The notes under the pieces are model-generated. The model saw only the letters and a program-made list of their open reading frames with translations, ran no database searches and was not told where the DNA came from. Below are positions 11,830 through 57,494 of a stretch of 64,000 nt of DNA, one piece after another (positions within the stretch are counted from its first letter, which is position 1; the number at the start of each line of letters is the position of its first letter). The translations under genes and the position numbers were made by a program. This DNA comes from a virus. Location of the stretch: IMG/VR virus record IMGVR_UViG_3300029788_000157. One strand, written 5' to 3'.

Positions 11830-12978
11830 TTACTCTGTTAATAATTGAATCTGCTTCTGCATTTCACGTATAACCTTATCAGTTATATCTGTTGTAATAT
11901 TGTCTGGTAGAGTAATTCTTAACGACTTTACTGCTTCTTCATCAGACAATCCTATAGCTTTCAATACATGAGATGGTACTGAGGAATGTGAATTACAAGC
12001 TGAACCAACGGATACATATATATCACACAAATCCAACAAGTATATCATTGCTTCCCCCATTACATTTTGATTAAAAGTAATATTGATATTATTGGGAAGT
12101 CTGTCAGTATATTGACCATTAAGCTTGCAACCAATTTTATCTAACAATTCACCAATCATATAGTCTCTTTGTTTTATTGTTGTAAGATATTTTTTCTGTT
12201 TCATATCTACAGAACATAATTCAACTGCTTTAGCAAATCCCATTATATAAGGAAGGTTCTCTGTTCCACCTCTTAATCCATTCATTTGACTACCGTAAAT
12301 CAACGGACTGATTTTTACATCTTCTTTTTTATATAAGATACCAATTCCTTTTGGTGTACCAATCTTATGTCCACTGGCACTCAACATATCAATTTTAGAT
12401 GCCTTCACATCAATTGGAATATGACCAAAAGCTTGTACTGCATCAGTATGAAATATTGCTCCATATTTATGTACAGTTAAAGCAATATCGTGAATATGTT
12501 GAATTGTTCCAATTTCATTATTTGCATATTGAATAGACACTAAAATATCTTCTCCACTTTTCTGTGAAATCACATATTTTAAAGTATCTTCTAAAGCTCT
12601 TAAATCAATACAACCGTTTGTATCAACATCTATAAAGTGAACATCAACTCCAATACCATCCACACATGACAATATAGATTTATGTTCGATTACAGAAGTT
12701 ATAACTGAAGGTATTCTACCCTTTCTCAAACGATTTTGTACAAAGCCCTGTATCGCCCAACAATTACTTTCGCTTCCACAACTGGTAAAATATACTTCAT
12801 ACATTTCTGAATTAAGGAAGTGTGCTACTGTTTCTTTTGCAGATTTTAATGCATTAGCAGCTTCTTGAGCTGGACTATATAAAGATGATGGATTATACCA
12901 CATATCCATATAAGAATAAATTGTATCTAAAACCTCTTTCTTTGGTTTAGTTGTTGCTGCTTCATCCAGATATATCAC
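11830..12978 (-). CDS. iscS: cysteine desulfurase (class V aminotransferase, IscS/NifS-like)
   Basis: 382 aa; PLP-lysine motif SASGHK; overall IscS-like layout. Confidence 0.8.
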   Translation of the reverse strand: MIYLDEAATTKPKKEVLDTIYSYMDMWYNPSSLYSPAQEAANALKSAKETVAHFLNSEMYEVYFTSCGSESNCWAIQGFVQNRLRKGRIPSVITSVIEHKSILSCVDGIGVDVHFIDVDTNGCIDLRALEDTLKYVISQKSGEDILVSIQYANNEIGTIQHIHDIALTVHKYGAIFHTDAVQAFGHIPIDVKASKIDMLSASGHKIGTPKGIGILYKKEDVKISPLIYGSQMNGLRGGTENLPYIMGFAKAVELCSVDMKQKKYLTTIKQRDYMIGELLDKIGCKLNGQYTDRLPNNINITFNQNVMGEAMIYLLDLCDIYVSVGSACNSHSSVPSHVLKAIGLSDEEAVKSLRITLPDNITTDITDKVIREMQKQIQLLTE

Positions 12979-12987
12979 AATATCACC

Positions 12988-13479
12988 TCACTTAAAATTA
13001 ATGTATTCTGTTGAACCATAACTGTTATCAATTTTTTTATATAAAACCAACTCCATTCCTTGTCTTGAAACATCGTCAGTTATAATACCTTCAAAATCAT
13101 AACTGGTTATACCATCTACATTATATAATTCATCCAATACAACTTCATGTATTGTATTTGGATAATTTTCATCCAACATTCTATTCAAAGTTACCAAAAT
13201 AGTGTACGCTCTTTGTTCAGCAGAACCACCTTTATATGTAGCAATCTTCAATAAAAATTCATGGTCTATAAAATCCCAATCCATTGACATTCTATCTTGA
13301 AATTTGGTGTACCCATTATCATAATGTGTAACACTACTTTCATTATCATTTATAATAAGTGGTTCTGGTTCGAACTCTTTTACATTGGATTCCTTTAAAT
13401 TTGAATGTGTTGTGCCACAAGAAGCCATAATCAACATCATAGATATTACTATGATACTGCTGACAAACCTTTTAATCAT
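12988..13479 (-). CDS. putative lipoprotein
   Basis: Signal peptide plus lipobox (LIMASCG). Confidence 0.5.
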   Translation of the reverse strand: MIKRFVSSIIVISMMLIMASCGTTHSNLKESNVKEFEPEPLIINDNESSVTHYDNGYTKFQDRMSMDWDFIDHEFLLKIATYKGGSAEQRAYTILVTLNRMLDENYPNTIHEVVLDELYNVDGITSYDFEGIITDDVSRQGMELVLYKKIDNSYGSTEYINFK

Positions 13480-13801
13480 CGACTACAAATCTCCAATCTT
13501 TAAAGAAAGTTGTTTTATCAGGATAGCTTACAAAAAATTTCTCATTCTGAATTAATTGAATTTCATTTTTGTTTTCAAATATACGCACCCAACAATATTT
13601 GTCTTTCTGTATATTTGTAACAGGTTTATCCGTAATGCAAATTAACAAGACCTTTTCATGAGTAGTAACACTTCTTTCAAACCATTTATTTTGAAGAATC
13701 TGTCCATCAACCTCTTTACTTCTTGTGCCAGATGCATACATAAATATCACAAATCCTATTTCTATAATGATAAAAACAACTATTCCAATCAATACCTTCA
13801 T
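13472..13801 (-). CDS. membrane protein
   Basis: N-terminal TM helix. Confidence 0.4.
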   Translation of the reverse strand: MKVLIGIVVFIIIEIGFVIFMYASGTRSKEVDGQILQNKWFERSVTTHEKVLLICITDKPVTNIQKDKYCWVRIFENKNEIQLIQNEKFFVSYPDKTTFFKDWRFVVDD

Positions 13802-13811
13802 TTTTGCTCCT

Positions 13812-14300
13812 TTACTTTTCTAAAGACTCCATCATCTTTCTAATTGTTCTGGAAACATCTTTCTTCGCACCAGTAACCTTATTTAATTCATTCTGAAGGA
13901 ACTGCTCATTACTATTCAGATATTTCTGCTGACAACGGAGATATGCAAGTCTAATACCAAAGAAAAGATTAAATGTATCTCCATGACAAGACGCTTCAGA
14001 GCGAACATTATTGACAGTTCTTACCTGTACCTTTCGTCCATTGGTTCTATAAAAACCAACTACTCCACCATTCTCACCAGCAATCTGTGTCCAAGGTAAC
14101 CATCCCTTTACCTTTTCAGGCTTCTCAAAGTATTCACTTACGACATCAATCGGAAGTGCTGCTACTGCAATTTTTGTTCTTGCATCTCTCATAACTACAG
14201 ATGTCTCTGTAATGTTCGCTACCTCATATGTCATTCCAACCATTTTCATTTTATCGTACTCTTTTGTTAAAATAAGTCTATCTCCTCTTAAAATATCCAT
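13812..14300 (-). CDS. hypothetical protein
   Basis: 162-aa ORF. Confidence 0.4.
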   Translation of the reverse strand: MDILRGDRLILTKEYDKMKMVGMTYEVANITETSVVMRDARTKIAVAALPIDVVSEYFEKPEKVKGWLPWTQIAGENGGVVGFYRTNGRKVQVRTVNNVRSEASCHGDTFNLFFGIRLAYLRCQQKYLNSNEQFLQNELNKVTGAKKDVSRTIRKMMESLEK

Positions 14301-14318
14301 ATCATTACCTCTTCTTTC

Positions 14319-15092
14319 TTATTTTTTATCTTCAAGCCACTTGTTATCCAGATAATAGAATCCTATTACTACTGCAATTATTACAATAATCCAAACAATC
14401 CAGAATATCACAAGTTCAACGCTTGATTCTAAATGGTCAATAGTTTCATCTATATTCAAACCATTATAAAATGATGTATTGTTTGAAATTGTATTATCAG
14501 TCAAAACAGTATATATTGTTCCTGTATATTCTGTTCCAATACCATAATACTTATATCTTATATGACTTGATGTTTTTATTGTATCTATATAATCATCATC
14601 TGGTAATTCTATTTTGCTACTGTCAAATACTACACCACAAAATGATACTTCATTACATTTTATATCTTCGCTACCAACTCTATCCCAAGTCCAATAAGTT
14701 TCTGTTCTAGTGTGAGTCTGCCTTGTTTTACCGCTTCCTGTTGTATAAGTTACTGTTCTGGTATGCATTGTGTATTTTTCTTTGATTTTTTCAACATACA
14801 TATACGCTCCACCGATTTCAGGATAGGTAACTGTATCAACAGCTTTCAAATCACCATGAACAAATGCATTTCCTATATCAGTTCTCATACCATATGAGAA
14901 CATTTCAGAATTATTATCAATCTGTAATGCGGTATTGTATTTTTGATACTCATTCATCAAGTTATCACTTATTTTTCCATGAATCACAAAGCCAATAAGG
15001 GTCATTACAGCTATAATCGCAATGCTGAATAATACCTCTCTCTTTGTAATTTCAAAATCATGCCTTATTTTTCTATAACCGTAATAACCCAT
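14319..15092 (-). CDS. membrane protein (N- and C-terminal TM helices)
   Basis: Hydrophobic segments at both ends; sits upstream of LemA. Confidence 0.45.
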   Translation of the reverse strand: MGYYGYRKIRHDFEITKREVLFSIAIIAVMTLIGFVIHGKISDNLMNEYQKYNTALQIDNNSEMFSYGMRTDIGNAFVHGDLKAVDTVTYPEIGGAYMYVEKIKEKYTMHTRTVTYTTGSGKTRQTHTRTETYWTWDRVGSEDIKCNEVSFCGVVFDSSKIELPDDDYIDTIKTSSHIRYKYYGIGTEYTGTIYTVLTDNTISNNTSFYNGLNIDETIDHLESSVELVIFWIVWIIVIIAVVIGFYYLDNKWLEDKK

Positions 15093-15107
15093 TTTCGTCT
15101 ACCTCAT

Positions 15108-15659
15108 TTAATCAAACAAATTTGTTGGTGCATCATCTGAAACATCAAAATCCAATTTCTGATAATCTCCTTTTTCATATCCCATTAGTCCAAGAATCTG
15201 CTTATTAGGAGAATGTTTTACATACGCATTATACTTCGTAACCCATGTATTATAATTTGTTCTCACATTAGCAATTTTATTTTCTGTTGTGGACAATTCA
15301 TTCATAAGTTCCTTATAATTACTTGAACTCTGTAATTCTGGATATGCTTCAGCAACCGCTTTAATCTGAGTGGTAATCTCTGCTACTGCTGCATCACTCT
15401 TTGTTCCTCTGGAATCAACTACTGCCATCAAGGTGTCATATTCATGTTTATCGTAAGCTTTTACGCAATCTACCAGATTAGGAATCAAATCAGCTCTTCT
15501 CTTTTCCTGAATCTTGATTTCAGATTTAGCAGTTGTAATCTGTTCCTCATAAGAAATTGCTTTGTTCTGTACTCCCCAGAACCCAAATGTAAATGTTCCG
15601 ATAATTGCTACAATAATCGCCATAATAATCAATGGCAGCTTCCATGATTTAGTTTTCAT
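15108..15659 (-). CDS. LemA family protein
   Basis: N-terminal TM helix plus a LemA-like conserved core (YN..V..YN). Confidence 0.6.
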   Translation of the reverse strand: MKTKSWKLPLIIMAIIVAIIGTFTFGFWGVQNKAISYEEQITTAKSEIKIQEKRRADLIPNLVDCVKAYDKHEYDTLMAVVDSRGTKSDAAVAEITTQIKAVAEAYPELQSSSNYKELMNELSTTENKIANVRTNYNTWVTKYNAYVKHSPNKQILGLMGYEKGDYQKLDFDVSDDAPTNLFD

Positions 15660-15673
15660 ATAATCCTCCTTCG

Positions 15674-15695
15674 GTATATAACCTTATCAATTTAT
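15674..15695 (-). promoter_or_regulatory. motif A (variant) upstream of lemA
   Basis: gtatataaccttatcaatttat. Confidence 0.35.
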
Positions 15696-15985
15696 TCTTC
15701 TTTATCTGTAAGTGGTTGGAATCCATCATGTGAATCACTTGCAAAGAATATTTCATAGCCATCTTTTTCTTTACGGAATATAATTGCATCTATGCTTAAT
15801 CCGTCATATTCTGAGCAATTCAATAATGTAAATGATTCTAACCAACCCATAATAATTGATTGTGCTTTTCTGTAATCTGGATAAATACCAGACATAGCAT
15901 CTTCGCAAGGCACAACAACTATATCGTCCTTATATTTAGTAATTGCTATTACATTTTCGTCTTTGAATCCGAACTTTTCAAACAT
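15692..15985 (-). CDS. hypothetical protein
   Basis: 97-aa ORF. Confidence 0.4.
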   Translation of the reverse strand: MFEKFGFKDENVIAITKYKDDIVVVPCEDAMSGIYPDYRKAQSIIMGWLESFTLLNCSEYDGLSIDAIIFRKEKDGYEIFFASDSHDGFQPLTDKEE

Positions 15986-15999
15986 TGCCCTTCTCTTTC

Positions 16000-16920
16000 C
16001 TATTCAATCTTTACACCAATAAACTCAAGCACTTCTTTTAGCCCTAATCCACCTTCTGACATAGGTTTCATACAATATTGCCATAATTTTGGATGGGTTA
16101 TTTTAAGATTTTGAAATCTATTTGGTTCTTTTTCAAGGTGACATCCATACATACAAAAGACACATCCTGTTCTACTGCATTTTGTTGTTTGCCATTTTCC
16201 TTTATTGTCTTGTACAATCTCTCCATATACAGGAGCATAAGGTAAATTGTATTTTTTGATATACTCAAGAATATCTTGCTCTGTCCAAAATGATAATGGT
16301 TGAGAAGTTGGTCGTTTTGTATCAAAAGCATTACACCCATGTACTTTCCATGCAGTTTTTCTTGCCTGACTCTCACAAGCCATAGTTCCGATTATTGGAT
16401 GCTTGCCTGTTTCTTTTTCATATTTCTTTGCTGGCTTCTTTTTCATAATATTGCAACATTTATTACTAATAAGAAATGGAGCATTTAATAAAAATTTCCA
16501 TTTTTCACAATTATAAATACTTTTATTTCCATTTTTATCCAGCAATTCTCCATTTAATCTTTTTATCCGATATGTATATTTTCCTGTTGTTTCATGCCTT
16601 CTTGCTTCCTCAATAACTTGAGAGATTTCTTTACTTACAATCGGATAACCATATGTTTGAATTACTTTTTTGAAATTCATTTCAGGTCTTACCCATGTAA
16701 CATTTTCAACCGATTTTACAAACTCTCTTAATTCTGGATATTCAAGTCCTGTATCAACAAATACTGCTGGTGTATTTGGATAAAGCCTTCTAACCAAATG
16801 TAATAAAACTGTACTATCTTTTCCACCCGAAAAAGAAACATAAATTTGATTGTAAAAAGGAGTAAAGTTAATGGGTAAACAACCTAAAAGTAAGTTCACA
16901 AATGATGATTTAAAAACCAT
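16000..16920 (-). CDS. PAPS/APS reductase-family PP-loop ATP pyrophosphatase with C-terminal Cys cluster
   Basis: SFSGGKDS PP-loop; LHLV...P.PAVFVDTG..YPE matches the CysH-like core; C-terminal CSRTGCVFCMYGC. Confidence 0.65.
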   Translation of the reverse strand: MVFKSSFVNLLLGCLPINFTPFYNQIYVSFSGGKDSTVLLHLVRRLYPNTPAVFVDTGLEYPELREFVKSVENVTWVRPEMNFKKVIQTYGYPIVSKEISQVIEEARRHETTGKYTYRIKRLNGELLDKNGNKSIYNCEKWKFLLNAPFLISNKCCNIMKKKPAKKYEKETGKHPIIGTMACESQARKTAWKVHGCNAFDTKRPTSQPLSFWTEQDILEYIKKYNLPYAPVYGEIVQDNKGKWQTTKCSRTGCVFCMYGCHLEKEPNRFQNLKITHPKLWQYCMKPMSEGGLGLKEVLEFIGVKIE

Positions 16921-17073
16921 GCAAAACTGGAATTTAGACCGTAAAATTGCAACCTCACTTACAAGAATCGCTGAATTTTATGCTAAATATCCTCATGAAA
17001 TTTATGTTTTAAGTGTTGTTAGATACAATATATAGTGTATTCATTTATATACTTATCTATATATTGTATTGCT

Positions 17074-24221: not shown

Positions 24222-25976
24222 TTAGAATCCTTTGCTTTCTGCATGGATGCTATTTCTGATTTCATTTAATGTCTGGTTACGAACAACCTTACCATTAAGG
24301 AATACAGTCTCAAGCATATTAATATCAGACTCTTTCACATCATCTGTTACAACCTGACCCTTTTGGATTCCATCAATATATTTGATTTCTCCATCTTTGT
24401 TACGATATACTCTGACCATACCCTTCTGAGATTTCTTAACACCATCACCTGTTTTCGGGTCTTTATAAACCAAAATAGGTTTACCATTGATTTCAGCATA
24501 TGTAGCTTTATAAGCCCAGCCCTGTGTATCTCTTGTGTTATACTGGAAACTGTAAGAACCAGCACCAAATACTACATTTTCAACTGCATAGCCAAGGTTA
24601 GTCATATGATTACAAATGCTTTCACATCTTTCAAGTGTAATAGCATCTCCGTACACCATTCCAATATGAGGGTCTAATACTTTATACCCCTTAGAGTTTA
24701 TAGTTCCACCGAAAATCTCCCAAAGAATATCCAGTGTTCCTCTCTCTTCAATAGTGGCATCACGATATGTGAATGTGTCGTTTTCACCATCATTAGACCA
24801 TGTAGCAATATATTTCTTATTTCCAATCTCAAGGTAAATTGGAACAAGCTGTCCAGACGTATCTGTTTCATTGCAATAAAGTGACTGCATCATTGGACTT
24901 CTGGTATAGTAAGATTCAAATGCTTCTTTACTTTCATGGGCTTTCCACATTGGGGCAATACCACAAATAATCTCTTCTGGGTCACCGCTGTCAGGTCTAA
25001 TATTGATTCTGCCTGTATGATTAAGAATTACATCCTTATTTTTTCTAACAATATTGTCAACAAAATTCCAGTAATCATAACTGTCTGCCACAAAGCTGAA
25101 AGGTTTATTTGGATAAAGCTCTTTACACATTCTTACAAAAAATGTTTCTTCATCTCCATCTACTGCATAATTGCTTGTAGTACAAGAATGTTCAACAGAT
25201 GCAGACCAGCTTCCAACATCCTCATTTTCAACATCAGCTCCATAGTAATCACAAAGATACTGAATTGAAGGGATTGTAGATGTTTTATCGAAGCTTGTTA
25301 AAAATGCAGCTCCGCTTGTAATAGCAGCATCAAGACTAGCCATACCTCTAAAAGAAAAATCGCCACAACCAACTCTCTTCCAATTCGGATTGTCAGATGT
25401 TAAAACAATATATTTTTCAATAATCTTTCTGTAAATATAAGCTCTTGTTGCTGTTGTTGTAGGTAACCATAAATTACAAGAAAATAATGTCTCAAGATAA
25501 TTTGTTACCCATGCAAAATCAGGATGTGTATTTTCGACTGTACAACAAGGTACTCTATATGGTACTTTTGTACCTTCTGGCAAAGCCTTAATCTCAATCG
25601 GGAGATAGCCAAGTTTATGAAGTGCTTCAATATGTTCTGTATGAGCATTTTCATCAAATGTATTATGGATATACAATTTATACTCATTAAGCACTTCGTC
25701 TAACGGTCTATCAAAGAAATATTCATTAAACTGTTTTACCAAATATTCCTTAATAAATCCCTGTAATCCAAACCAGATTACAAATTTGCTCTGAGGAAAG
25801 AATTTATTACTACGTGGTGTCCAAGTGGAATACATCATTGTCATTCCATCTGGGTACATAGCCCGATGTGCAATTTTATAAAAATCGCATAATAACATCA
25901 TATTCTTCATTTTACTTATCCTCCTTACAATGGCATCCACAACCGCAATCACACACGTTCTCAGCATAATCAACAT
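24222..25976 (-). CDS. nadV: nicotinamide phosphoribosyltransferase-family protein (NadV/NAMPT or Namat-like)
   Basis: LCDFYKIAH and GYLPIEIKALPEGTKVP...VENTHPDFAWVTNYLETL align with NAMPT signature segments. Likely start is the ATG at 25910, 1 nt after the prs stop. Confidence 0.7.
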   Translation of the reverse strand: MLIMLRTCVIAVVDAIVRRISKMKNMMLLCDFYKIAHRAMYPDGMTMMYSTWTPRSNKFFPQSKFVIWFGLQGFIKEYLVKQFNEYFFDRPLDEVLNEYKLYIHNTFDENAHTEHIEALHKLGYLPIEIKALPEGTKVPYRVPCCTVENTHPDFAWVTNYLETLFSCNLWLPTTTATRAYIYRKIIEKYIVLTSDNPNWKRVGCGDFSFRGMASLDAAITSGAAFLTSFDKTSTIPSIQYLCDYYGADVENEDVGSWSASVEHSCTTSNYAVDGDEETFFVRMCKELYPNKPFSFVADSYDYWNFVDNIVRKNKDVILNHTGRINIRPDSGDPEEIICGIAPMWKAHESKEAFESYYTRSPMMQSLYCNETDTSGQLVPIYLEIGNKKYIATWSNDGENDTFTYRDATIEERGTLDILWEIFGGTINSKGYKVLDPHIGMVYGDAITLERCESICNHMTNLGYAVENVVFGAGSYSFQYNTRDTQGWAYKATYAEINGKPILVYKDPKTGDGVKKSQKGMVRVYRNKDGEIKYIDGIQKGQVVTDDVKESDINMLETVFLNGKVVRNQTLNEIRNSIHAESKGF

Positions 25977-26847
25977 TCATAGCAAACACAGTTACATTTT
26001 CATCACTCTTAAAAGGATAAATGCTATCTGTTGTGAACACATGGTCAATCAGCTTTCTGTGCTGAGTTGTTCCAAAAATACTTTTCTTTTCATAGTCCAC
26101 TGTAAGAAGATTCATTTTATCGTCACCAAACTGACCATCATAAATACTCTTTTCACAATGAGAAACAAACAGATAAATGTTTCTTGCTCCCATCTCTTTC
26201 AATTTCTTTGCTGCATAATAGAAAGTTCCACCCTTACTACAAATATCATCACGAATAAGAATATCTCTTCCTTTAATATCTTCAGGTTTAATCCCCATAA
26301 CATCTAATCCAAGAATCCGACCTGTTTCCCATTCTCTCTTCTTAACACCAAATGCATACGGAATCTTAATCCCTTTGGAATATCTCTTCATAGCCCCCTC
26401 ATCAGGGAAAAACATAATCGGTGTAATACCATCGTGAATCAACATATCAAGCACGTTGCTCACAAAAATATTAGTATTGATTACATTGCAATTCTTGATA
26501 GTTGCTGCTACAACACTTGAATGTGGGTCAACTACAAATACTCTGTCAAAATTCAGAGAATTAATCATTTCTGCAAAATACTTCATAGCAAAAATATCAT
26601 TTGGCTCTTCGATTCTGTCCATTCTTGCGTTAGGTACATATGGAAGGAAAAGAGATACATTCATTCCATGTGCCTGATAGAATTTTGTTAAAAATGAAAC
26701 TGCTACAAACTCAGCATCATCCTCATAATTCCAAGTAATAACAACTGTTTCTCCCTGTAAGCTAACATCACCTTTTACATTTGCTGTTCCATCAGGAAAT
26801 CTCTTTACTTCAACTTCTTTTCCATTTACTCTAATCATAATCTTCAC
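25912..26847 (-). CDS. prs: ribose-phosphate pyrophosphokinase-family protein (Prs or ADPR-pyrophosphokinase Adps-like)
   Basis: Prs-like segments FLPYVPNARMDR, DRVFVVDPHS and a PRPP-binding loop; unusual Cys-rich C-terminus CDCGCGCHC. Confidence 0.7.
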   Translation of the reverse strand: MKIMIRVNGKEVEVKRFPDGTANVKGDVSLQGETVVITWNYEDDAEFVAVSFLTKFYQAHGMNVSLFLPYVPNARMDRIEEPNDIFAMKYFAEMINSLNFDRVFVVDPHSSVVAATIKNCNVINTNIFVSNVLDMLIHDGITPIMFFPDEGAMKRYSKGIKIPYAFGVKKREWETGRILGLDVMGIKPEDIKGRDILIRDDICSKGGTFYYAAKKLKEMGARNIYLFVSHCEKSIYDGQFGDDKMNLLTVDYEKKSIFGTTQHRKLIDHVFTTDSIYPFKSDENVTVFAMNVDYAENVCDCGCGCHCKEDK

Positions 26848-26860
26848 CTTTCTTTTTTGA

Positions 26861-26880
26861 TATATAACCTTAACAGATAT
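26861..26880 (-). promoter_or_regulatory. motif A upstream of the prs-like gene
   Basis: tatataaccttaacagatat. Confidence 0.4.
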
Positions 26881-26889
26881 GACTGTTAT

Positions 26890-27525
26890 TTAGTTTTCAT
26901 TTGCCTGTGTGGATTCATCTGTATCTGCCTTTGCTTCCGTTGTTTCTGTAGATTCTGAATTTTCTCCATAATGTCTACCAATTACATCAACCTGACAGCT
27001 TGCCATTGTTCTAAGAGCTGCATTATGAGCTTTAATACTTGTACCAGCACAACAATGACTATCAACTTTAATTACTGTATTTGGCATAGCAGTTCTTAAA
27101 CCAATGGCATTTGCTACAACACAAATATCTGTGCATACTCCACAAAGTTCGATTTCATCACTACTACTGCACACCTGAGAAAGAATTGCAATCAAATCTT
27201 TGCTTGCAAATGTATTTTTATCAACTACACCTACATACTTTTTCTGTTTGCGAAGCATCTGAACAGCTTCCCAAACATCCTTGTTGATACTTTCTCCACC
27301 AGATTTTTTAATACAATGTGGTACAGGAAGTTTCTTGCCTTCAAGAGTATCCAGATAATTGTCATAATGAATATCTCTTGTCAGATAAATAGAATCATAA
27401 TCCTTTCCGTATTTCTTCAGCTTTTTTACAAGCTTTGGCACAATGGCTTTTGTCTCGTCATTTCCTAACGCACCATCAATAAAGTCATTCTGCACATCCA
27501 CTACAACCAAAATCTTTTTGTTCAT
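26890..27525 (-). CDS. pncA: isochorismatase-family hydrolase, nicotinamidase-like
   Basis: VVVDVQNDF and GVCTDICV (catalytic Cys) motifs; 211 aa. Confidence 0.55.
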   Translation of the reverse strand: MNKKILVVVDVQNDFIDGALGNDETKAIVPKLVKKLKKYGKDYDSIYLTRDIHYDNYLDTLEGKKLPVPHCIKKSGGESINKDVWEAVQMLRKQKKYVGVVDKNTFASKDLIAILSQVCSSSDEIELCGVCTDICVVANAIGLRTAMPNTVIKVDSHCCAGTSIKAHNAALRTMASCQVDVIGRHYGENSESTETTEAKADTDESTQANEN

Positions 27526-28099: not shown

Positions 28100-28396
28100 A
28101 TGGGTAGATACAGTTTAACCTATAATTAGTAGCTAATCTAATTATGTTCTCCTACTGTCTAAAGGATGCACATTTTCATTTTAACCCACGCATTGTCTGC
28201 ATTTACAACACTTGAACACTGACGCAGTTCCTTACGCTATCTTCAATATAGCTGTTTATGTTTCTCCAGTGGCGAACTGGCAATGGTTAGCCAACCCATA
28301 TATAATGAAAATAGTCTAAGCGTTAGATAGATTGCTCTATCCGCTGGAATCGTACCAGCCCATCAACTATTGTTGAATCGAACCTCGCTTATTTCG

Positions 28397-28418: not shown

Positions 28419-28547
28419 TGTTAAAAGAAATTTTGTTTTCTATCTCTTAACTTGTGTTTAGTATAGCATATTCGTTTCTACTTGTCAACAACTTTTTTAA
28501 AGTTTTTATCACTTATTTATGTTGTTGTAAAATAGTTACCGTTCCTG

Positions 28548-29849
28548 TTATTTTACAAAATTAACTGATTTCGCTATGTTCTTTGCTGCATTAAAATCCG
28601 CATTTTCTTCATGACCACATTTAAGACATCTAAAATAAGATTGACCCTTTTCATTTTTGGGTCTATTCTTTTCATCCACATATCCACAACAACTACAGGT
28701 CTGAGAAGTATAATGTGGGTCTATTTTTCTAACCTCAATGCCATACTTATTTGCTTTGTATGTAATAAAAGACTGTAATTGATAATACGACCATCCTTTT
28801 AAAAATTTATTTACATTTTTACCTTTTGTAATTCCAGACAAATCTTCTATGTTAATATATTTAGCTTTGTTTTTTAAAGCAAAATCAATTACTTGTTTAC
28901 TAATATAATGATTATATGATTGAACCCAATTTCTTTCATAATCAGTAAACTTATCCATTGTTTTTAATTTTCTTTTTCTGCCATGACCACCTTTAGTCAT
29001 TTTAAGATTTGTCTGTAATCTACTCTTTTGATGTTGAATTTTTGTTTTTACTCGCATAAAATCATTTACACTACCAATATATTTTCGTGAATAATCATTT
29101 ATATTTAATCCACAAACCGCTGGTATTGCAATACCAACATCCACTCCAACTACCACATTTTCATCTAATTCCCTCTTTTCTTTTGGAATATCCATAGAAA
29201 GATTTAAAATAATTTTTCTTCCATCAATTTCTATAGAACTACTACAAACCTTATAATATTCTTCGAAAATCATTTGTATTTCGTGTCTAAGTGAAGCAGA
29301 TTTTTTCACATTTCCCAAAATTAATTTAAACGTAATATTATTAGCAAATTTAATAAACACTTCCAAATCTTTGTTATCTAAATGTTCCAAAAATTCTGCA
29401 TGATTTTTATAATTATGATATAAACCAGAATCACGATGCGGATTGTTGCTTCTTAAACGAACATAATCAACATGAATCAAAAGCGGATTATCACTTCTAT
29501 ATGTAGGTAAAGAGACTTTTCCATACATTAACCCATTTTTACAAGATTGTTTAAAATCCTGTTTTACTTTCATAGATAAACTTGAAGCAACTGGCAAACC
29601 TTTTGGAAATACAATATCTTGTGAATACGCAGAACCTTTTTTACTATTTGAAATTCTGCCATATAACTGATTCAATTCTTTTCTATCTTCTTTACTAGCT
29701 TTATTTAATTCTGCTAAATATAACGCAGACATATATTCATTCATAGCTTTATTTTGAGAAATCATACCTTCTCTTATATAATTAAAAACTCTATTTACTT
29801 CATCATTATTACCAACTATTAATAATTGAATTTTTCTTGTTAAAATCAT
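28548..29849 (-). CDS. tnpB: TnpB (IS605 OrfB) RNA-guided endonuclease-like protein
   Basis: RuvC-I VGVDVGIAIPAV; C-terminal HYTSQTCSCCG...FRCLKCGHEENADFNAAKNIA zinc finger plus RuvC-III. Confidence 0.85.
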   Translation of the reverse strand: MILTRKIQLLIVGNNDEVNRVFNYIREGMISQNKAMNEYMSALYLAELNKASKEDRKELNQLYGRISNSKKGSAYSQDIVFPKGLPVASSLSMKVKQDFKQSCKNGLMYGKVSLPTYRSDNPLLIHVDYVRLRSNNPHRDSGLYHNYKNHAEFLEHLDNKDLEVFIKFANNITFKLILGNVKKSASLRHEIQMIFEEYYKVCSSSIEIDGRKIILNLSMDIPKEKRELDENVVVGVDVGIAIPAVCGLNINDYSRKYIGSVNDFMRVKTKIQHQKSRLQTNLKMTKGGHGRKRKLKTMDKFTDYERNWVQSYNHYISKQVIDFALKNKAKYINIEDLSGITKGKNVNKFLKGWSYYQLQSFITYKANKYGIEVRKIDPHYTSQTCSCCGYVDEKNRPKNEKGQSYFRCLKCGHEENADFNAAKNIAKSVNFVK

Positions 29850-30048
29850 TTTTATTTCCTTCTATTTTATATCTCTTAAAGTCTTGATGATTACTCTAGG
29901 TCTGGCAGCAATTTGATACCTATGTAATTTTATATATATCTTAAAGGTCAAAATTTACATAGAATAAAACTACATAGATTTTAGTGAGTAGATATACTCT
30001 CACTTTTTGGCAGTCAAATCTACCAAACAGATATATTCTGTTATTGTT

Positions 30049-30076
30049 CTACTTGTTGTTATAAACAACAAGTAGC
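30049..30076. repeat. perfect 12-bp-stem palindrome CTACTTGTTGTT-ATAA-AACAACAAGTAG (candidate IS200/605 subterminal hairpin, left end)
   Basis: Exact inverted repeat ~200 bp upstream of the tnpB start. Confidence 0.5.
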
Positions 30077-30237
30077 TTTTACGCATAAAACTAATATTTT
30101 ATGTGTTAGTGAGTATGAAATGCCACCTGATTTTAAGTGTGTTTGGGAAAAGCAAGTAACATCCAGCTTAAAAGTTCATGAGCATATAGCCCGAACAGAA
30201 AAGCTTTTTATGTTGCATCCAGATAAATTATATACAT

Positions 30238-30873
30238 TTAAAGGGTGTTAATAGATACGTTGAAGCATAAAATATTAGTTTCTGCCACTTTTCTACACCA
30301 ATCATAGAACTGTTCATAGTCAAATTCACCTGTAGAATACTTTGTAACCCCTTTATATGGTGGGTCACAATAGATTAAAGCACCAGATAATGTATTCATA
30401 TCAATATCCAGATAATTTTTACTGGTCAATTTAACATCTTGAATAAGCGGAACTTGTTTCATAATATTCCTTATTGCTTCATTTGGAATATCTCTAGGGG
30501 TTACACCATCTGCTTTAAATCCTCTGGCATAACCACCAAAGTATTTTGAACCAAATGTACTACAGAATCCAACCAATCCAACATAATAATCAGGATAATT
30601 CTCTTTGTTTAATCTGACAGAATTATATTCATCTTCTGATATTGTTGATGGTGGTATCCAGCCTTCCTGAAGTTTTTTCAATAAAGCAATCAGTTCTTTA
30701 TGAATGTCATTACCCACACGAACCTTGCAATGAATTTTATCCATCATGTTCAATCCACCGCAGAATGGTTCGTAGTAGATACTGACATTATTATCATCAA
30801 TTAGTGATTGTAATATTGGTGCAATTTGTTTTGATACCTTATTTTTGCTTCCAACGTACTTAATAACAATCAC
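30238..30873 (-). CDS. dam: DNA N6-adenine methyltransferase (Dam/D12 class)
   Basis: N-terminal IKYVGSKNK (motif I-like) and LIYCDPPY (DPPY motif IV). Confidence 0.7.
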   Translation of the reverse strand: MIVIKYVGSKNKVSKQIAPILQSLIDDNNVSIYYEPFCGGLNMMDKIHCKVRVGNDIHKELIALLKKLQEGWIPPSTISEDEYNSVRLNKENYPDYYVGLVGFCSTFGSKYFGGYARGFKADGVTPRDIPNEAIRNIMKQVPLIQDVKLTSKNYLDIDMNTLSGALIYCDPPYKGVTKYSTGEFDYEQFYDWCRKVAETNILCFNVSINTL

Positions 30874-55953: not shown

Positions 55954-56026
55954 GGCTCTATGGTATAAAGGCAATTATATCCGACTGTCTCTCGGAAGAT
56001 TTGGGTTCGATTCCCAATAGAGTCGC
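55954..56026 (+). tRNA. tRNA-Asp (GTC)
   Basis: Hand-folded: acceptor GGCTCTA/TAGAGTC, anticodon loop CTGTCTC. Confidence 0.55.
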
Positions 56027-56084
56027 TTATTGGAATGTAGTTCAACAAAAGTTGGATGATTTCGTTCCAATTATTCCCTTATAG

Positions 56085-56147
56085 CTCAGTTGGTAGAGCG
56101 TCTGGCTGTTAACCAGAATGTCACAGGTTCAAGTCCTGTTGGGGGAG
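56085..56147 (+). tRNA. tRNA-Asn (GTT)
   Basis: D-arm AGCTCAGTTGGTAGAGC, anticodon loop CTGTTAA, T-loop TTCAAGT. Confidence 0.55.
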
Positions 56148-56152
56148 CTTAT

Positions 56153-56224
56153 AGGAAGTTGGTGTAATGGCAACACAACAGTCTCCAAAACTGTAAGTTT
56201 AGGGTTCGAATCCTTAACTTCCTG
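56153..56224 (+). tRNA. tRNA-Trp (CCA)
   Basis: Acceptor AGGAAGT/ACTTCCT, anticodon loop CTCCAAA. Confidence 0.6.
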
Positions 56225-56230
56225 TTTTAT

Positions 56231-56314
56231 GGGCGAGTATGCAAAATGGTGAAGCGAGCTGACTGTAAATCAGTGACGTAAGATACATTGTGGGTTCGAA
56301 TCCTACCTCTCCCA
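56231..56314 (+). tRNA. tRNA-Tyr (GTA), long variable arm
   Basis: Anticodon loop CTGTAAA, long variable arm, T-loop TTCGAAT. Confidence 0.5.
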
Positions 56315-56320
56315 TTTATA

Positions 56321-56400
56321 GTGAAAGTATTTTAAAAGTAGAATATCCGAATTTATGAATAAGACAACGGAAGGTAGAGGTTCAAATCCTCTCTTTCACT
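56321..56400 (+). tRNA. tRNA-like gene with aberrant/expanded anticodon arm (isotype unassigned)
   Basis: Perfect 7-bp acceptor GTGAAAG/CTTTCAC and T-arm AGAGG-TTCAAAT-CCTCT, but the region between is 8 nt too long for a standard anticodon arm. Confidence 0.3.
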
Positions 56401-56405
56401 AATTT

Positions 56406-56488
56406 GCTGGTGTGGTGGAATTGGCAGACACATTGGGTTTAAGCCCCAATTGCATATAGCAGTACGAGTTCAAATCTCGTCACCAGCA
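56406..56488 (+). tRNA. tRNA-Leu (TAA), long variable arm
   Basis: Acceptor GCTGGTG/CACCAGC, anticodon stem TTGGG/CCCAA with loop TTTAAGC. Confidence 0.55.
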
Positions 56489-56522
56489 TTGTGCTTCTCT
56501 ACATAATGAGAACCTTTATTTT

Positions 56523-56593
56523 AGAGTGTGTGGTGTAATGGTAGCATACGTGATTTGGGGTCATGGGGAGCAGTTCAAATCTGACACATTCTA
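56523..56593 (+). tRNA. tRNA-Pro (TGG), slightly degenerate T-stem
   Basis: Anticodon arm CGTGA-TTTGGGG-TCATG resembles bacterial tRNA-Pro(UGG); acceptor AGAGTGT/ACATTCT. Confidence 0.45.
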
Positions 56594-56600
56594 TTTCTAT

Positions 56601-56673
56601 TGCGGAATAAAGCAGCGGTTAGCTTACCAGTCTCATAAGCTGGGTGTCGTGAGTTCGAATCTCACTTCCGCAT
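56601..56673 (+). tRNA. tRNA-Met/Ile2 (CAT)
   Basis: Acceptor TGCGGAA/TTCCGCA, anticodon loop CTCATAA, T-arm GTGAG-TTCGAAT-CTCAC. Confidence 0.55.
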
Positions 56674-56748
56674 TAATAATGGTATAACTTTGCGGAGTTA
56701 TAGCAGATGAAAACCTACTGCATTAAGGTAAGCAATGACCTTAATTAT

Positions 56749-56821
56749 GGCTTCGTGGTCAAATGGTTAAGACACCACTCTTTCAAGGTGGGATTGATGG
56801 GTTCGATTCCCTCCGAAGTCA
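56749..56821 (+). tRNA. tRNA-Glu (TTC)
   Basis: Acceptor GGCTTCG/CGAAGTC, anticodon loop CTTTCAA. Confidence 0.5.
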
Positions 56822-56825
56822 TTAT

Positions 56826-56897
56826 GGTGTATTTAGTTTAATGGTAAAACGCTAGATTGTGATTCTATGGTTGAGGGTTCGATTCCTTCAATACACC
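56826..56897 (+). tRNA. tRNA-His (GTG) with encoded G-1:C73
   Basis: G-1 paired to discriminator C; acceptor GTGTATT/AATACAC; D-stem GTTT/AAAC; anticodon loop TTGTGAT. Confidence 0.55.
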
Positions 56898-56901
56898 TTT
56901 T

Positions 56902-56984
56902 GGAGAGTAAATCTATATGGTATAGAGCCTGTCTGCTAAACAGTGCGTACCGAAAGGTATTTAGTTCGATTCTAATGCTTTCCG
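56902..56984 (+). tRNA. tRNA-Ser (GCT), long variable arm
   Basis: Anticodon loop CTGCTAA, long variable arm, acceptor GGAGAGT/GCTTTCC with two G-U pairs. Confidence 0.5.
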
Positions 56985-56987
56985 TAT

Positions 56988-57060
56988 GGGATTGTAGTTC
57001 TAATGGGAGAATAACTGCTTTGCAAGCAGAAGGTTGTGGGTTCAAATCCCACCAGTTCCA
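56988..57060 (+). tRNA. tRNA-Ala (TGC)
   Basis: G3:U70 identity pair present; anticodon loop TTTGCAA; T-arm GTGGG-TTCAAAT-CCCAC. Confidence 0.55.
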
Positions 57061-57064
57061 TTTT

Positions 57065-57146
57065 GGATGTGTAGCCAAGCGGTATGGCAACTGGCTTTTA
57101 ACCAGTATATCGAAGGTTCAAGTCCTTTCACATCCACTATTGCTCC
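57065..57146 (+). tRNA. tRNA-Lys (TTT)
   Basis: Acceptor GGATGTG/CACATCC, anticodon loop CTTTTAA. Confidence 0.55.
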
Positions 57147-57151
57147 TATAG

Positions 57152-57223
57152 TGATAATGGCAGCACGTTTGACTTGTAATCAATTAGTCACAGTTCGAAT
57201 CTGTGTGGGAGCTTATGCATTAT
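57152..57223 (+). tRNA. tRNA-Thr (TGT)
   Basis: Anticodon loop CTTGTAA, T-arm CACAG-TTCGAAT-CTGTG. Confidence 0.5.
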
Positions 57224-57226
57224 TGG

Positions 57227-57298
57227 TCTAAAGGCTATGATTTCTGATTTCCAATCAGACGATATGGGTTCGATTCCCATATAATGCTTGTATCCGTA
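57227..57298 (+). tRNA. tRNA-Gly (TCC)
   Basis: Acceptor GCATTAT/ATAATGC, anticodon arm TCTGA-TTTCCAA-TCAGA. Confidence 0.55.
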
Positions 57299-57301
57299 TA
57301 G

Positions 57302-57366
57302 CTCAATGGAATTAGAGCATCGTTCTTCTAAAGCGGTTGTTTTCGGTTCGAATCCGAATACGGATG
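57302..57366 (+). tRNA. tRNA-Arg (TCT)
   Basis: Acceptor ATCCGTA/TACGGAT, anticodon loop CTTCTAA. Confidence 0.5.
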
Positions 57367-57371
57367 TTTAT

Positions 57372-57461
57372 GGAAGTGTACTCAAACTGGTGAAGAGGTC
57401 TGTCCTGAAAACAGATAGGTCGGTGTGAATCGGCATAGGGGTTCGAATCCCTTCGCTTCCG
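57372..57461 (+). tRNA. tRNA-Ser (TGA), long variable arm
   Basis: Acceptor GGAAGTG/CGCTTCC, anticodon arm TCTGT-CCTGAAA-ACAGA, long variable arm. Confidence 0.55.
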
Positions 57462-57494
57462 CTATTAAAATTATGCAATGAAAGGACTGAGAAA

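Follow-up and report, generated by a model that had tools for sequence, protein, structure and literature searches.

A small nuclease gene in a phage may belong to an insertion sequence (IS) or to an RNA-guided system that serves the phage itself, and this question is raised by a locus in the viral record IMGVR_UViG_3300029788_000157, of which the whole stretch of 64,000 nucleotides (hereafter the window) was analysed. Between a dam-like methyltransferase gene and a tRNA operon, the window carries an open reading frame (ORF) of 433 codons that a first-pass annotation, made from the sequence alone, had taken for an intact IS605-type TnpB element, either a hitch-hiking IS or a domesticated RNA-guided nuclease; public records that name the gene call it 'transposase'. 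Our results point to the second of these options: the locus is probably a self-contained, phage-encoded type V-F CRISPR-Cas12f cassette without adaptation genes, with a predicted trans-activating CRISPR RNA (tracrRNA), a mini-array and an intact Cas12f gene.

Its amino acid sequence places the 433-aa protein within the type V-F (Cas12f1-like) family, in the neighbourhood of CnCas12f1 and RhCas12f1. It matched the Pfam model Cas12f1-like_TNB at 1.6e-25, and the best match in a phmmer search of all PDB sequences was CnCas12f1 (8hr5, 497 aa) with an E-value of 1.5e-75 over residues 39-432. Further matches were RhCas12f (9nzp, 1e-66), AsCas12f (4e-43) and Un1Cas12f (4e-35), and ISDra2 TnpB reached 4e-5 only. 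Among the NCBIfam models, guided_TnpB (NF040570) scored 183.8 bits at a cut-off of 100, which holds at the superfamily level only, and the models IS200_TnpB and IS607_TnpB stayed at 68.6 (cut-off 425) and 48.5 (cut-off 350), respectively. Thus, the earlier assignment was right with regard to the TnpB/Cas12 superfamily but not with regard to the IS605 type, since the closest relatives are Cas12f proteins. The RuvC and zinc-finger motifs are intact, as had been stated: the catalytic residues D237 (in VGVDVG), E335 (in NIEDL) and D418 (in NADFNA) and the CxxC...CxxC zinc finger align with those of solved Cas12f structures (8hr5, 9nzp). In a set of 17 homologues, no variation was seen at the three catalytic residues or at C385, C388 and C408, and C411 is kept in at least 90% of the set. 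The gene is present as a single copy in the window, and no cas1, cas2 or cas4 gene was found in the examined neighbourhoods of the homologues and of the window locus. RNA-guided double-strand DNA cleavage by an asymmetric homodimer is predicted for the protein.

The guide RNA had been expected as an omega-RNA, with its guide, at the 3' flank of the gene. Instead, a putative guide RNA lies 5' of the gene, in the form of a tracrRNA and a CRISPR mini-array. When the upstream regions of the homologous genes were compared side by side, a conserved non-coding block appeared, after which come direct repeats separated by unique spacers. The window has 225 nt between a palindrome and the ATG of cas12f, and these contain the predicted tracrRNA, one CRISPR repeat with its spacer, and a second, degenerate repeat (Table 1); in this way an order of tracrRNA, 36-nt repeat, 29-nt spacer, half repeat doubling as ribosome-binding site (RBS) and 433-aa Cas12f gene could be shown on one and the same strand.

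Table 1 Features of the putative cas12f cassette and of its right flank, with positions in the window.
Feature	Position	Strand	Remarks
Whole cassette	28527-30076	minus	insertion/deletion unit relative to the empty-site allele (L091); right edge 28527 to ~28543, depending on how the shared ACGGTAA is counted
Perfect palindrome	30049-30075	no strand	12-nt arms and 3-nt loop; extreme left edge of the cassette
Predicted tracrRNA core	29964-30024	minus	stem 1 at 30009-30024; stem 2 at 29984-30003; UAAA; 16-nt anti-repeat AUCUAUGUAGUUUUAU at 29964-29979
Linker, 17 nt	29947-29963	minus	second, partial anti-repeat copy UCUAUGUAAAUUU; inverted repeat; lies within the long hairpin when folded as one transcript
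CRISPR repeat, 36 nt	29911-29946	minus	CTTTAAGATATATATAAAATTACATAGGTATCAAAT; sole full copy in the window
Spacer, 29 nt	29882-29910	minus	TGCTGCCAGACCTAGAGTAATCATCAAGA; between the full and the degenerate repeat
Degenerate terminal repeat	29850-29881	minus	5' half matches the repeat; 3' half replaced by the cas12f RBS AGAAGGA
cas12f gene, 433 aa	28548-29849	minus	intact RuvC D237/E335/D418 and CxxC...CxxC TNB zinc finger; ATG at 29849
A/T-rich hairpin across the stop codon	28525-28558	minus	10 bp; right cassette edge; no U tract after it; no terminator called
Promoter of RAGATH-36-like RNA and tRNA operon	28460-28488	minus	TTGACA-17-TATACT; 11/12 matches, TG extension; flanking, outside the cassette
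RAGATH-36-like RNA	28211-28362	minus	Rfam 60.9 bits (gathering score 70), E 6e-11; between the tRNA-operon promoter and tRNA-Gln

The RNA parts of this arrangement are conserved in structure. Over 18 loci, 99.1% of the cells in tracrRNA stems 1 and 2 were paired and 7 of the 12 pairs carried compensatory changes; the covariation score was reached by none of 500 shuffles, and sliding of the pairing partners cut the pairing to 32-46%. The 16-bp duplex of anti-repeat and repeat, which also covaries across the loci, had a folding energy of -18.9 kcal/mol compared to -7.6 +/- 2.4 kcal/mol for shuffled repeats. Folded as a single transcript (z = -3.5), the region formed stems 1 and 2 followed by a long hairpin of anti-repeat and repeat, with the spacer mostly unpaired save for a short internal hairpin. 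The 5' module of the tracrRNA aligns with the experimentally validated guide RNAs (gRNAs) of RhCas12f and OsCas12f (PMC13186708, supplementary file 3), with which it has the pattern GGnnGAUUUnnnnnCC-AA-nnGAG...CUC in common; since the tracrRNA of the window is without the third stem of the Rh and Os guides, its scaffold would be only ~100 nt long. According to these predictions, a natural single guide of ~100 nt plus spacer can form from tracrRNA and repeat. The same spacer was present in 8 other assemblies of the phage (9 in total), identical in seven of them and with one single-nucleotide polymorphism in the eighth, and it is unique within the window at up to 3 mismatches.

The palindrome at the left edge is perfect with 12-nt arms, as had been reported, except that it ends at 30075 and not at 30076. 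Its right arm, AACAACAAGTAG, is similar to the phage promoter motif GTTGTTGACAAGTAG, and a homologous gene with 77% identity (L011; compared contigs carry L numbers throughout) has a true TTGACA inverted pair at the homologous position. The palindrome is a candidate for the promoter or operator of the tracrRNA, or else for the terminator of the dam operon.

Homologues of 40-93% identity were found in viral contigs of 50-285 kb and in genomes of Clostridia, Lachnospiraceae and Bacillota, and a search of the INPHARED phages yielded no near-identical relatives. Among the homologues with at least 40% identity, most adjoin arrays of 1-15 spacers with a periodicity of 65-67 nt, located either upstream or downstream of the gene. 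Of 26 distinct homologous loci, 23 had the tracr-module pattern within 1.5 kb, in each case on the strand of the gene, and a variant of it was recognised manually in one more. Judged by these contexts, the cas12f family is CRISPR-associated and largely phage-borne. In the sister lineage with 93% identity (L009, L021, L090), the array consists of two identical repeats and a degenerate third one at 66-nt spacing, and holds two different spacers, here called B1 and B2; the window spacer is called A1. In L011 and in L073 (62% identity), a single repeat directly abuts the RBS and ATG of cas12f, an arrangement that may represent a degenerate array or a self-regulatory one. These lone repeats lie at 4297-4345 of L011 and 2950-3000 of L073, and the 'guide' of a CRISPR RNA (crRNA) made from them would equal the 5' end of the nuclease's own gene. 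In some homologous loci the gene has a tracr-like module on either side (L012, 5327-5390; L084, 2303 and 4368; L034, 2538 and 4350), and in L084 one cas12f gene lies between two different arrays with different repeats.

The cassette behaves as a discrete unit between dam and the tRNA operon, as the first-pass annotation had proposed, since the comparison with related phages yielded an empty-site allele, L091 (IMG/VR contig 3300045988_142724, 130 kb), whose flank proteins are 99-100% identical to those of the window. In a local alignment of the two, the left homology ends at 30077 and the right homology resumes at 28526, and at the place of the cassette L091 has 35-43 nt of unrelated filler. 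Compared to the sister contig L090, the window is ~86-96% identical from ~30116 to 28617 and 99-100% identical in the flanks. The dN/dS (ratio of non-synonymous to synonymous substitution rates) between the window cas12f and the 93% identical allele was 0.15 at a dS of 0.22 and, set against the 99-100% identical flanks, these values indicate that the cassette is under purifying selection and older than its flanks. Between these alleles, the amino acid changes are concentrated at residues 111-159, close to the part aligned with the RhCas12f residues that contact the protospacer-adjacent motif (PAM), and thus the PAM may have changed between the alleles. The locus order of dam, cassette, tRNA operon and a nicotinamidase-Prs-NAMPT-macro-NadE gene set was found in every lineage contig examined (33 places, counting similar ones grouped with those displayed). 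The 77% relative likewise lies directly after a dam-type methyltransferase gene and a 65% relative directly upstream of NAD (nicotinamide adenine dinucleotide)-salvage genes in other phages, which points to a long residence in this phage group. Together, the data fit an exchangeable accessory module at a recombination hotspot, whose site, between dam and the tRNA operon, is fixed.

The spacers of both alleles lead to the same element. B1 matched tniQ with 30/30 nt in L116 and L135 and with 29/30 nt in L087 and L125, at a site that encodes the most conserved TniQ motif, RPKKVTVFA(V/I)EK. B2 matched 27/30 nt in the gene of a 172-175-aa membrane protein, carried as cargo by the same Tn7-like element, and the window spacer matched the same cargo gene with 25-26/29 nt in 22 loci, ~360 bp away from the B2 site. 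The expectation for a chance match of 25/29 nt in the ~3x10^5 positions searched is ~2x10^-6 by a binomial estimate. The differences between the window spacer and its targets are mostly synonymous or conservative at the protein level (LMITLGLAA in the spacer compared to LMIALGLAA or IMIALGLIA), and in the 17 sites that have 4 mismatches, the PAM-proximal 12 nt are perfect. None of the sites of the three spacers is flanked by repeats. The window-spacer targets were found solely with a search pattern having N at five positions; no exact or near match was obtained in the window, IMG/VR or the JGI metagenomes, nor by BLAST in phages and plasmids, and of 54 representatives and 33 additional members of the clusters, none encoded LMITLGLAA, as a perfect target allele would. 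A placement of the window spacer on the TniQ motif of B1 ('RPRVII' compared to 'RPKKVT') was rejected, as no TniQ homologue has that motif. In these matches, the three spacers of the two alleles could be shown to converge on one guaA-linked Tn7-like element, and the window allele may target it as well.

The target element, found downstream of guaA in contigs of up to 430 kb, has genes for a TnsB-like transposase, TniB and TniQ. In one variant (L114, 1-4655), the targeted genes are accompanied by an HsdR/S/M type I restriction-modification system and a DUF3800 protein. The copies in L112-L124 (for example L119, 1229-16102) further carry genes for an XRE regulator, a resolvase, SprT-like and NYN-domain proteins and small uncharacterised proteins, and one copy of the element is listed in IMG/VR as a viral contig of 26.7 kb. 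With regard to the PAM, the targets of B1 and B2 have a common 5' flank, TTTCT. The spacer of a distant family member (L084) matched eight Heliusvirales phages with 28-29/29 nt (29/29 in six), and the flank in one of them is TTTTT. Together with AATGCC at the imperfect targets of the window spacer, these are the flanks seen, in a set of few independent protospacers.

A mechanism can be proposed from these parts. The guide RNA would be transcribed from a promoter located at the palindrome or beside it and would either be left fused or be cut within the repeat:anti-repeat duplex. It would then be loaded into a Cas12f dimer that recognises a protospacer beside a 5' PAM, and the single RuvC site would cut both strands. 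The predicted target is the Tn7-like transposon downstream of guaA in chromosomes of gut Clostridia; because the spacers match a chromosomal transposon, the phage would cut the chromosomes of hosts that carry the element. The benefit might consist in disabling an element that is harmful to the phage, one variant of which carries a type I restriction-modification system, or in competition between mobile elements. A more far-reaching reading, which we hold to be tentative and less likely than not, is that one family of large gut phages retains an exchangeable Cas12f cassette with a single guide, and that this serves as a weapon against one specific Tn7-like transposon in the chromosomes of the Clostridia which the phages infect. 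The transposon would restrict the phage, some variants having restriction-modification cargo, or would parasitise it, and the alleles of the cassette, which would differ in the spacer and, via residues 111-159, in the PAM preference, would for this reason stay distinct while the flanks recombine freely.

Several observations weigh against the cassette and its proposed role. The NCBIfam Cas12f2 model (NF049972) gave 135.3 bits at a cut-off of 450 and matched residues 187-428 alone; as this score is far under the cut-off and the nearest relatives are of the Cas12f1 type, we do not regard the protein as a Cas12f2. No consensus sigma-70 promoter was called at the palindrome or upstream of the tracrRNA, and the window has only one full repeat. 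All 22 sampled targets of the window spacer carry 3-6 mismatches, no perfect protospacer was found for it, and the 5' flank of its target sites, AATGCC, is unlike the TTTCT of the sister lineage, which makes cleavage by the window allele uncertain. For ten cargo proteins of the target element, PADLOC and PHROGs returned weak matches only.

Alternatively, the cassette might be a decaying or repurposed relic of a once working CRISPR-Cas12f unit, in which the spacer, owing to mismatches and a wrong flank, no longer specifies a cleavable target and which is either neutral baggage or has a non-cutting role such as DNA binding or self-regulation via the repeat overlapping the RBS. An array reduced to one spacer and a half repeat, the mismatched targets with their flank that is not T-rich, the lone repeats of L011 and L073 and a near-identical phage, L091, that manages without the cassette are all in line with such a state. 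However, the ORF and its catalytic residues as well as the tracrRNA stems and the anti-repeat are intact, the dN/dS relative to the sister allele is low, the spacer is kept across nine independent assemblies, and the PAM-proximal 12 bases are perfect in 17 of the 22 target sites; in addition, the changes at residues 111-159 could mean an altered PAM rather than decay. We consider a relic unlikely on these grounds. Far less probable is a selfish homing unit, in which Cas12f would cut cassette-less relatives of the phage during co-infection and repair would copy the cassette in. The presence/absence polymorphism at one site with identical flanks, the deeper history of the cassette compared to these flanks and the variation of HNH and other small modules in the same hotspot would be expected from homing. 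On the other hand, all three spacers map to one chromosomal transposon, and none of them matches the empty-site allele or the compared phage loci at up to 5 mismatches, which argues against homing.

The remaining alternative is an IS200/IS605-type TnpB insertion that hitch-hikes in the phage, with an omega-RNA that overlaps the 3' end of the gene, a guide beyond its right end and hairpin ends recognised by a TnpA acting in trans. A hairpin across the stop codon is present, as had been described, with 10 bp rather than 9, and it is kept in the sister lineage with a G-U wobble; its sequence is not related to that of the palindrome at the opposite edge of the cassette. The cassette stops 5-20 nt past the stop codon. 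No RNA family was matched by Rfam in the 3' end of the ORF or in the ~185 nt past the stop codon, where the omega-RNA had been predicted, and the sequence downstream of the stop codon showed no conservation among the homologues. The nearest Rfam match is the RAGATH-36-like RNA, which we rejected as an omega-RNA: it is absent beside the gene in L011, L012 and L020, and in L007 and L091 it stands apart from the gene or is present without it. The motif 'CTACTTGT..CAACAAC', which had been described as a related sequence at the 3' flank, is represented by CTACTTGTCAACAAC at 28479-28493 but is the sigma-70 promoter of the tRNA operon and an instance of a dispersed phage motif, since GTTGTTGACAAGTAG occurs 11 times in the window compared to 2.5 expected. 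This promoter is also found in L009, L011, L020 and, without a cassette, in L091, and must therefore be phage DNA and not an IS end. As had been noted, no TnpA is encoded next to the gene, where a dam-like methyltransferase gene and three tRNA genes were found, no scan for a trans-acting TnpA having been made in the remainder of the window. Although the guided_TnpB score, the hairpins at both extremities of the insertion/deletion unit and the existence of an empty-site allele would agree with an IS, we regard this as the least probable reading of all, given a protein that groups with Cas12f, the CRISPR repeats and predicted tracrRNA on the 5' side of the gene, a cassette end that leaves no room for a right end or a guide and is followed by a promoter shared with the empty allele, unmatched and unconserved sequence 3' of the gene, unrelated terminal hairpins, unrelated filler instead of a clean excision, and a single copy in the window at the same locus in every lineage contig examined.

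The surroundings of the cassette are variable as well. At 30088-30103 and 30266-30281, perfect 16-nt inverted repeats, AAACTAATATTTTATG and CATAAAATATTAGTTT, enclose a segment of 162 nt with the final ~40 codons of the dam-like methyltransferase gene. This segment is in frame in L091 and L003, giving a Dam of 251 aa, and is inverted in the window, giving a Dam of 211 aa and a C-terminal coding piece on the plus strand (ORF 30120-30251). It looks like an invertible on/off switch of the phage methylase or like an assembly artefact; in L001, tyrosine-recombinase genes lie a few kb away. The RAGATH-36-like RNA, whose 5' hairpin resembles a tRNA T-arm (GGUACGAUUCC), is conserved in L007, L009 and L091 and shows no linkage to cas12f in other phages. 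A second variable module of the hotspot, with a 213-aa ORF of unassigned function, lies between the promoter and the RAGATH-36-like RNA in some genomes (L007, 5680-6412; L091, 9936-10577) and is absent from the window; it is followed in L007 by a weak RAGATH-27 match, and L011 has an HNH endonuclease gene at the equivalent place. Downstream of the tRNA genes (25912-27525, continuing in L001 at 12349-16988), genes for isochorismatase/nicotinamidase-like and Prs-like proteins, NAMPT, a macro domain and NadE form what looks like a set for NAD salvage or reconstitution. In L020, a contig of 221 kb, the 65% cas12f homologue lies immediately upstream of this gene set, beside a Ro60/TROVE gene and tRNA genes. 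A second cluster of 15 tRNA genes on the plus strand (55954-57462) brings the number of tRNA genes in the window, together with the three near the cassette, to 18.

For the annotation of phage genomes, it follows that TnpB-like genes should be checked for a 5' tracrRNA and a mini-array before they are called insertion sequences. The locus adds a case with traceable targets, in which a phage-borne miniature CRISPR-Cas system would be directed against a host-resident transposon and not against another phage. As two alleles of one phage locus point to the same element, a role in counter-defence or in a conflict between mobile elements could be tested directly in gut Clostridia. A Cas12f of 433 aa with a scaffold of ~100 nt also has the size that is wanted for delivery-limited genome editing and, if the proposed use as a weapon holds, the scaffold would be among the shortest natural ones of Cas12f, paired with a small nuclease.

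The closest solved sequences to the window protein are CnCas12f1 (8HR5) and RhCas12f1 (9NZP), both type V-F proteins of Clostridia. They are of the same size class as the window protein (415-497 aa) and have the same layout of RuvC and TNB zinc finger, and the guide consists of tracrRNA and crRNA in both cases. The PAM of the Cn and Rh proteins is of the CC type; the protospacer flanks suggest TTTCT for the sister allele or GCC for the window allele. Unlike these systems, the cassette is encoded by a phage, of roughly 140-150 kb, and its array is single-spacer, located 5' of the gene and with the RBS within the last repeat. The Rh and Os guides in the structures determined by cryo-electron microscopy have 160 and 151 nt including the spacer, and the scaffolds of the Cas12f-MG119 family have 129-156 nt compared to the ~100 nt predicted here (PMC13186708).

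With regard to its presumed function, the cassette is comparable to the type I-F system of the Vibrio phage ICP1, a CRISPR-Cas system of a phage that is likewise of the lytic type and whose spacers match a host-resident mobile element, the chromosomal PLE island (PMC11656645). The ICP1 system is a multi-subunit one with adaptation genes and a longer array, and its function was shown experimentally (PMC11656645), whereas the locus in the window is a single-protein type V-F system without adaptation genes and with one spacer. CasPhi (Cas12j) and CasLambda are likewise phage-encoded and small, have no adaptation module and are thought to serve in conflicts between mobile elements. However, they belong to other Cas12 clades (Cas_phi3 matched the window protein with an E-value of 0.003) and to phages of at least 200 kb with other hosts, and CasPhi needs no tracrRNA, which the window system has. 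With IS200/IS605 TnpB proteins such as that of ISDra2, the protein shares the ancestry of the RuvC/TNB nuclease, and in these elements, too, a structured scaffold is followed by a 3' guide; their omega-RNA is encoded by the 3' end of tnpB, and the transposon that contains it has TnpA as well as a left and a right end, whereas the predicted RNA of the window is split into tracrRNA and repeat, lies 5' of the gene and has a CRISPR spacer. Viral mini-arrays of 1-2 spacers in phages and archaeal viruses are likewise virus-borne and aimed at other mobile elements, but depend on Cas proteins of the host and have host-type repeats (PMC11656645), and the array of the window is accompanied by its own effector and tracrRNA. 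A preprint on 'Cas12 hacker' (10.1101/2025.01.20.633832) deals with a miniature Cas12 that is encoded by a phage and activated by thioredoxin, and that was studied with E. coli proteins. Compact type V systems of phages, mini-arrays of viruses and phage CRISPR systems directed against host islands have been described already (PMC11656645, PMC12297358); what is unusual in the cassette presented here is the one-spacer array with the RBS inside its last repeat, the short scaffold and the Tn7-like target that is common to two alleles.

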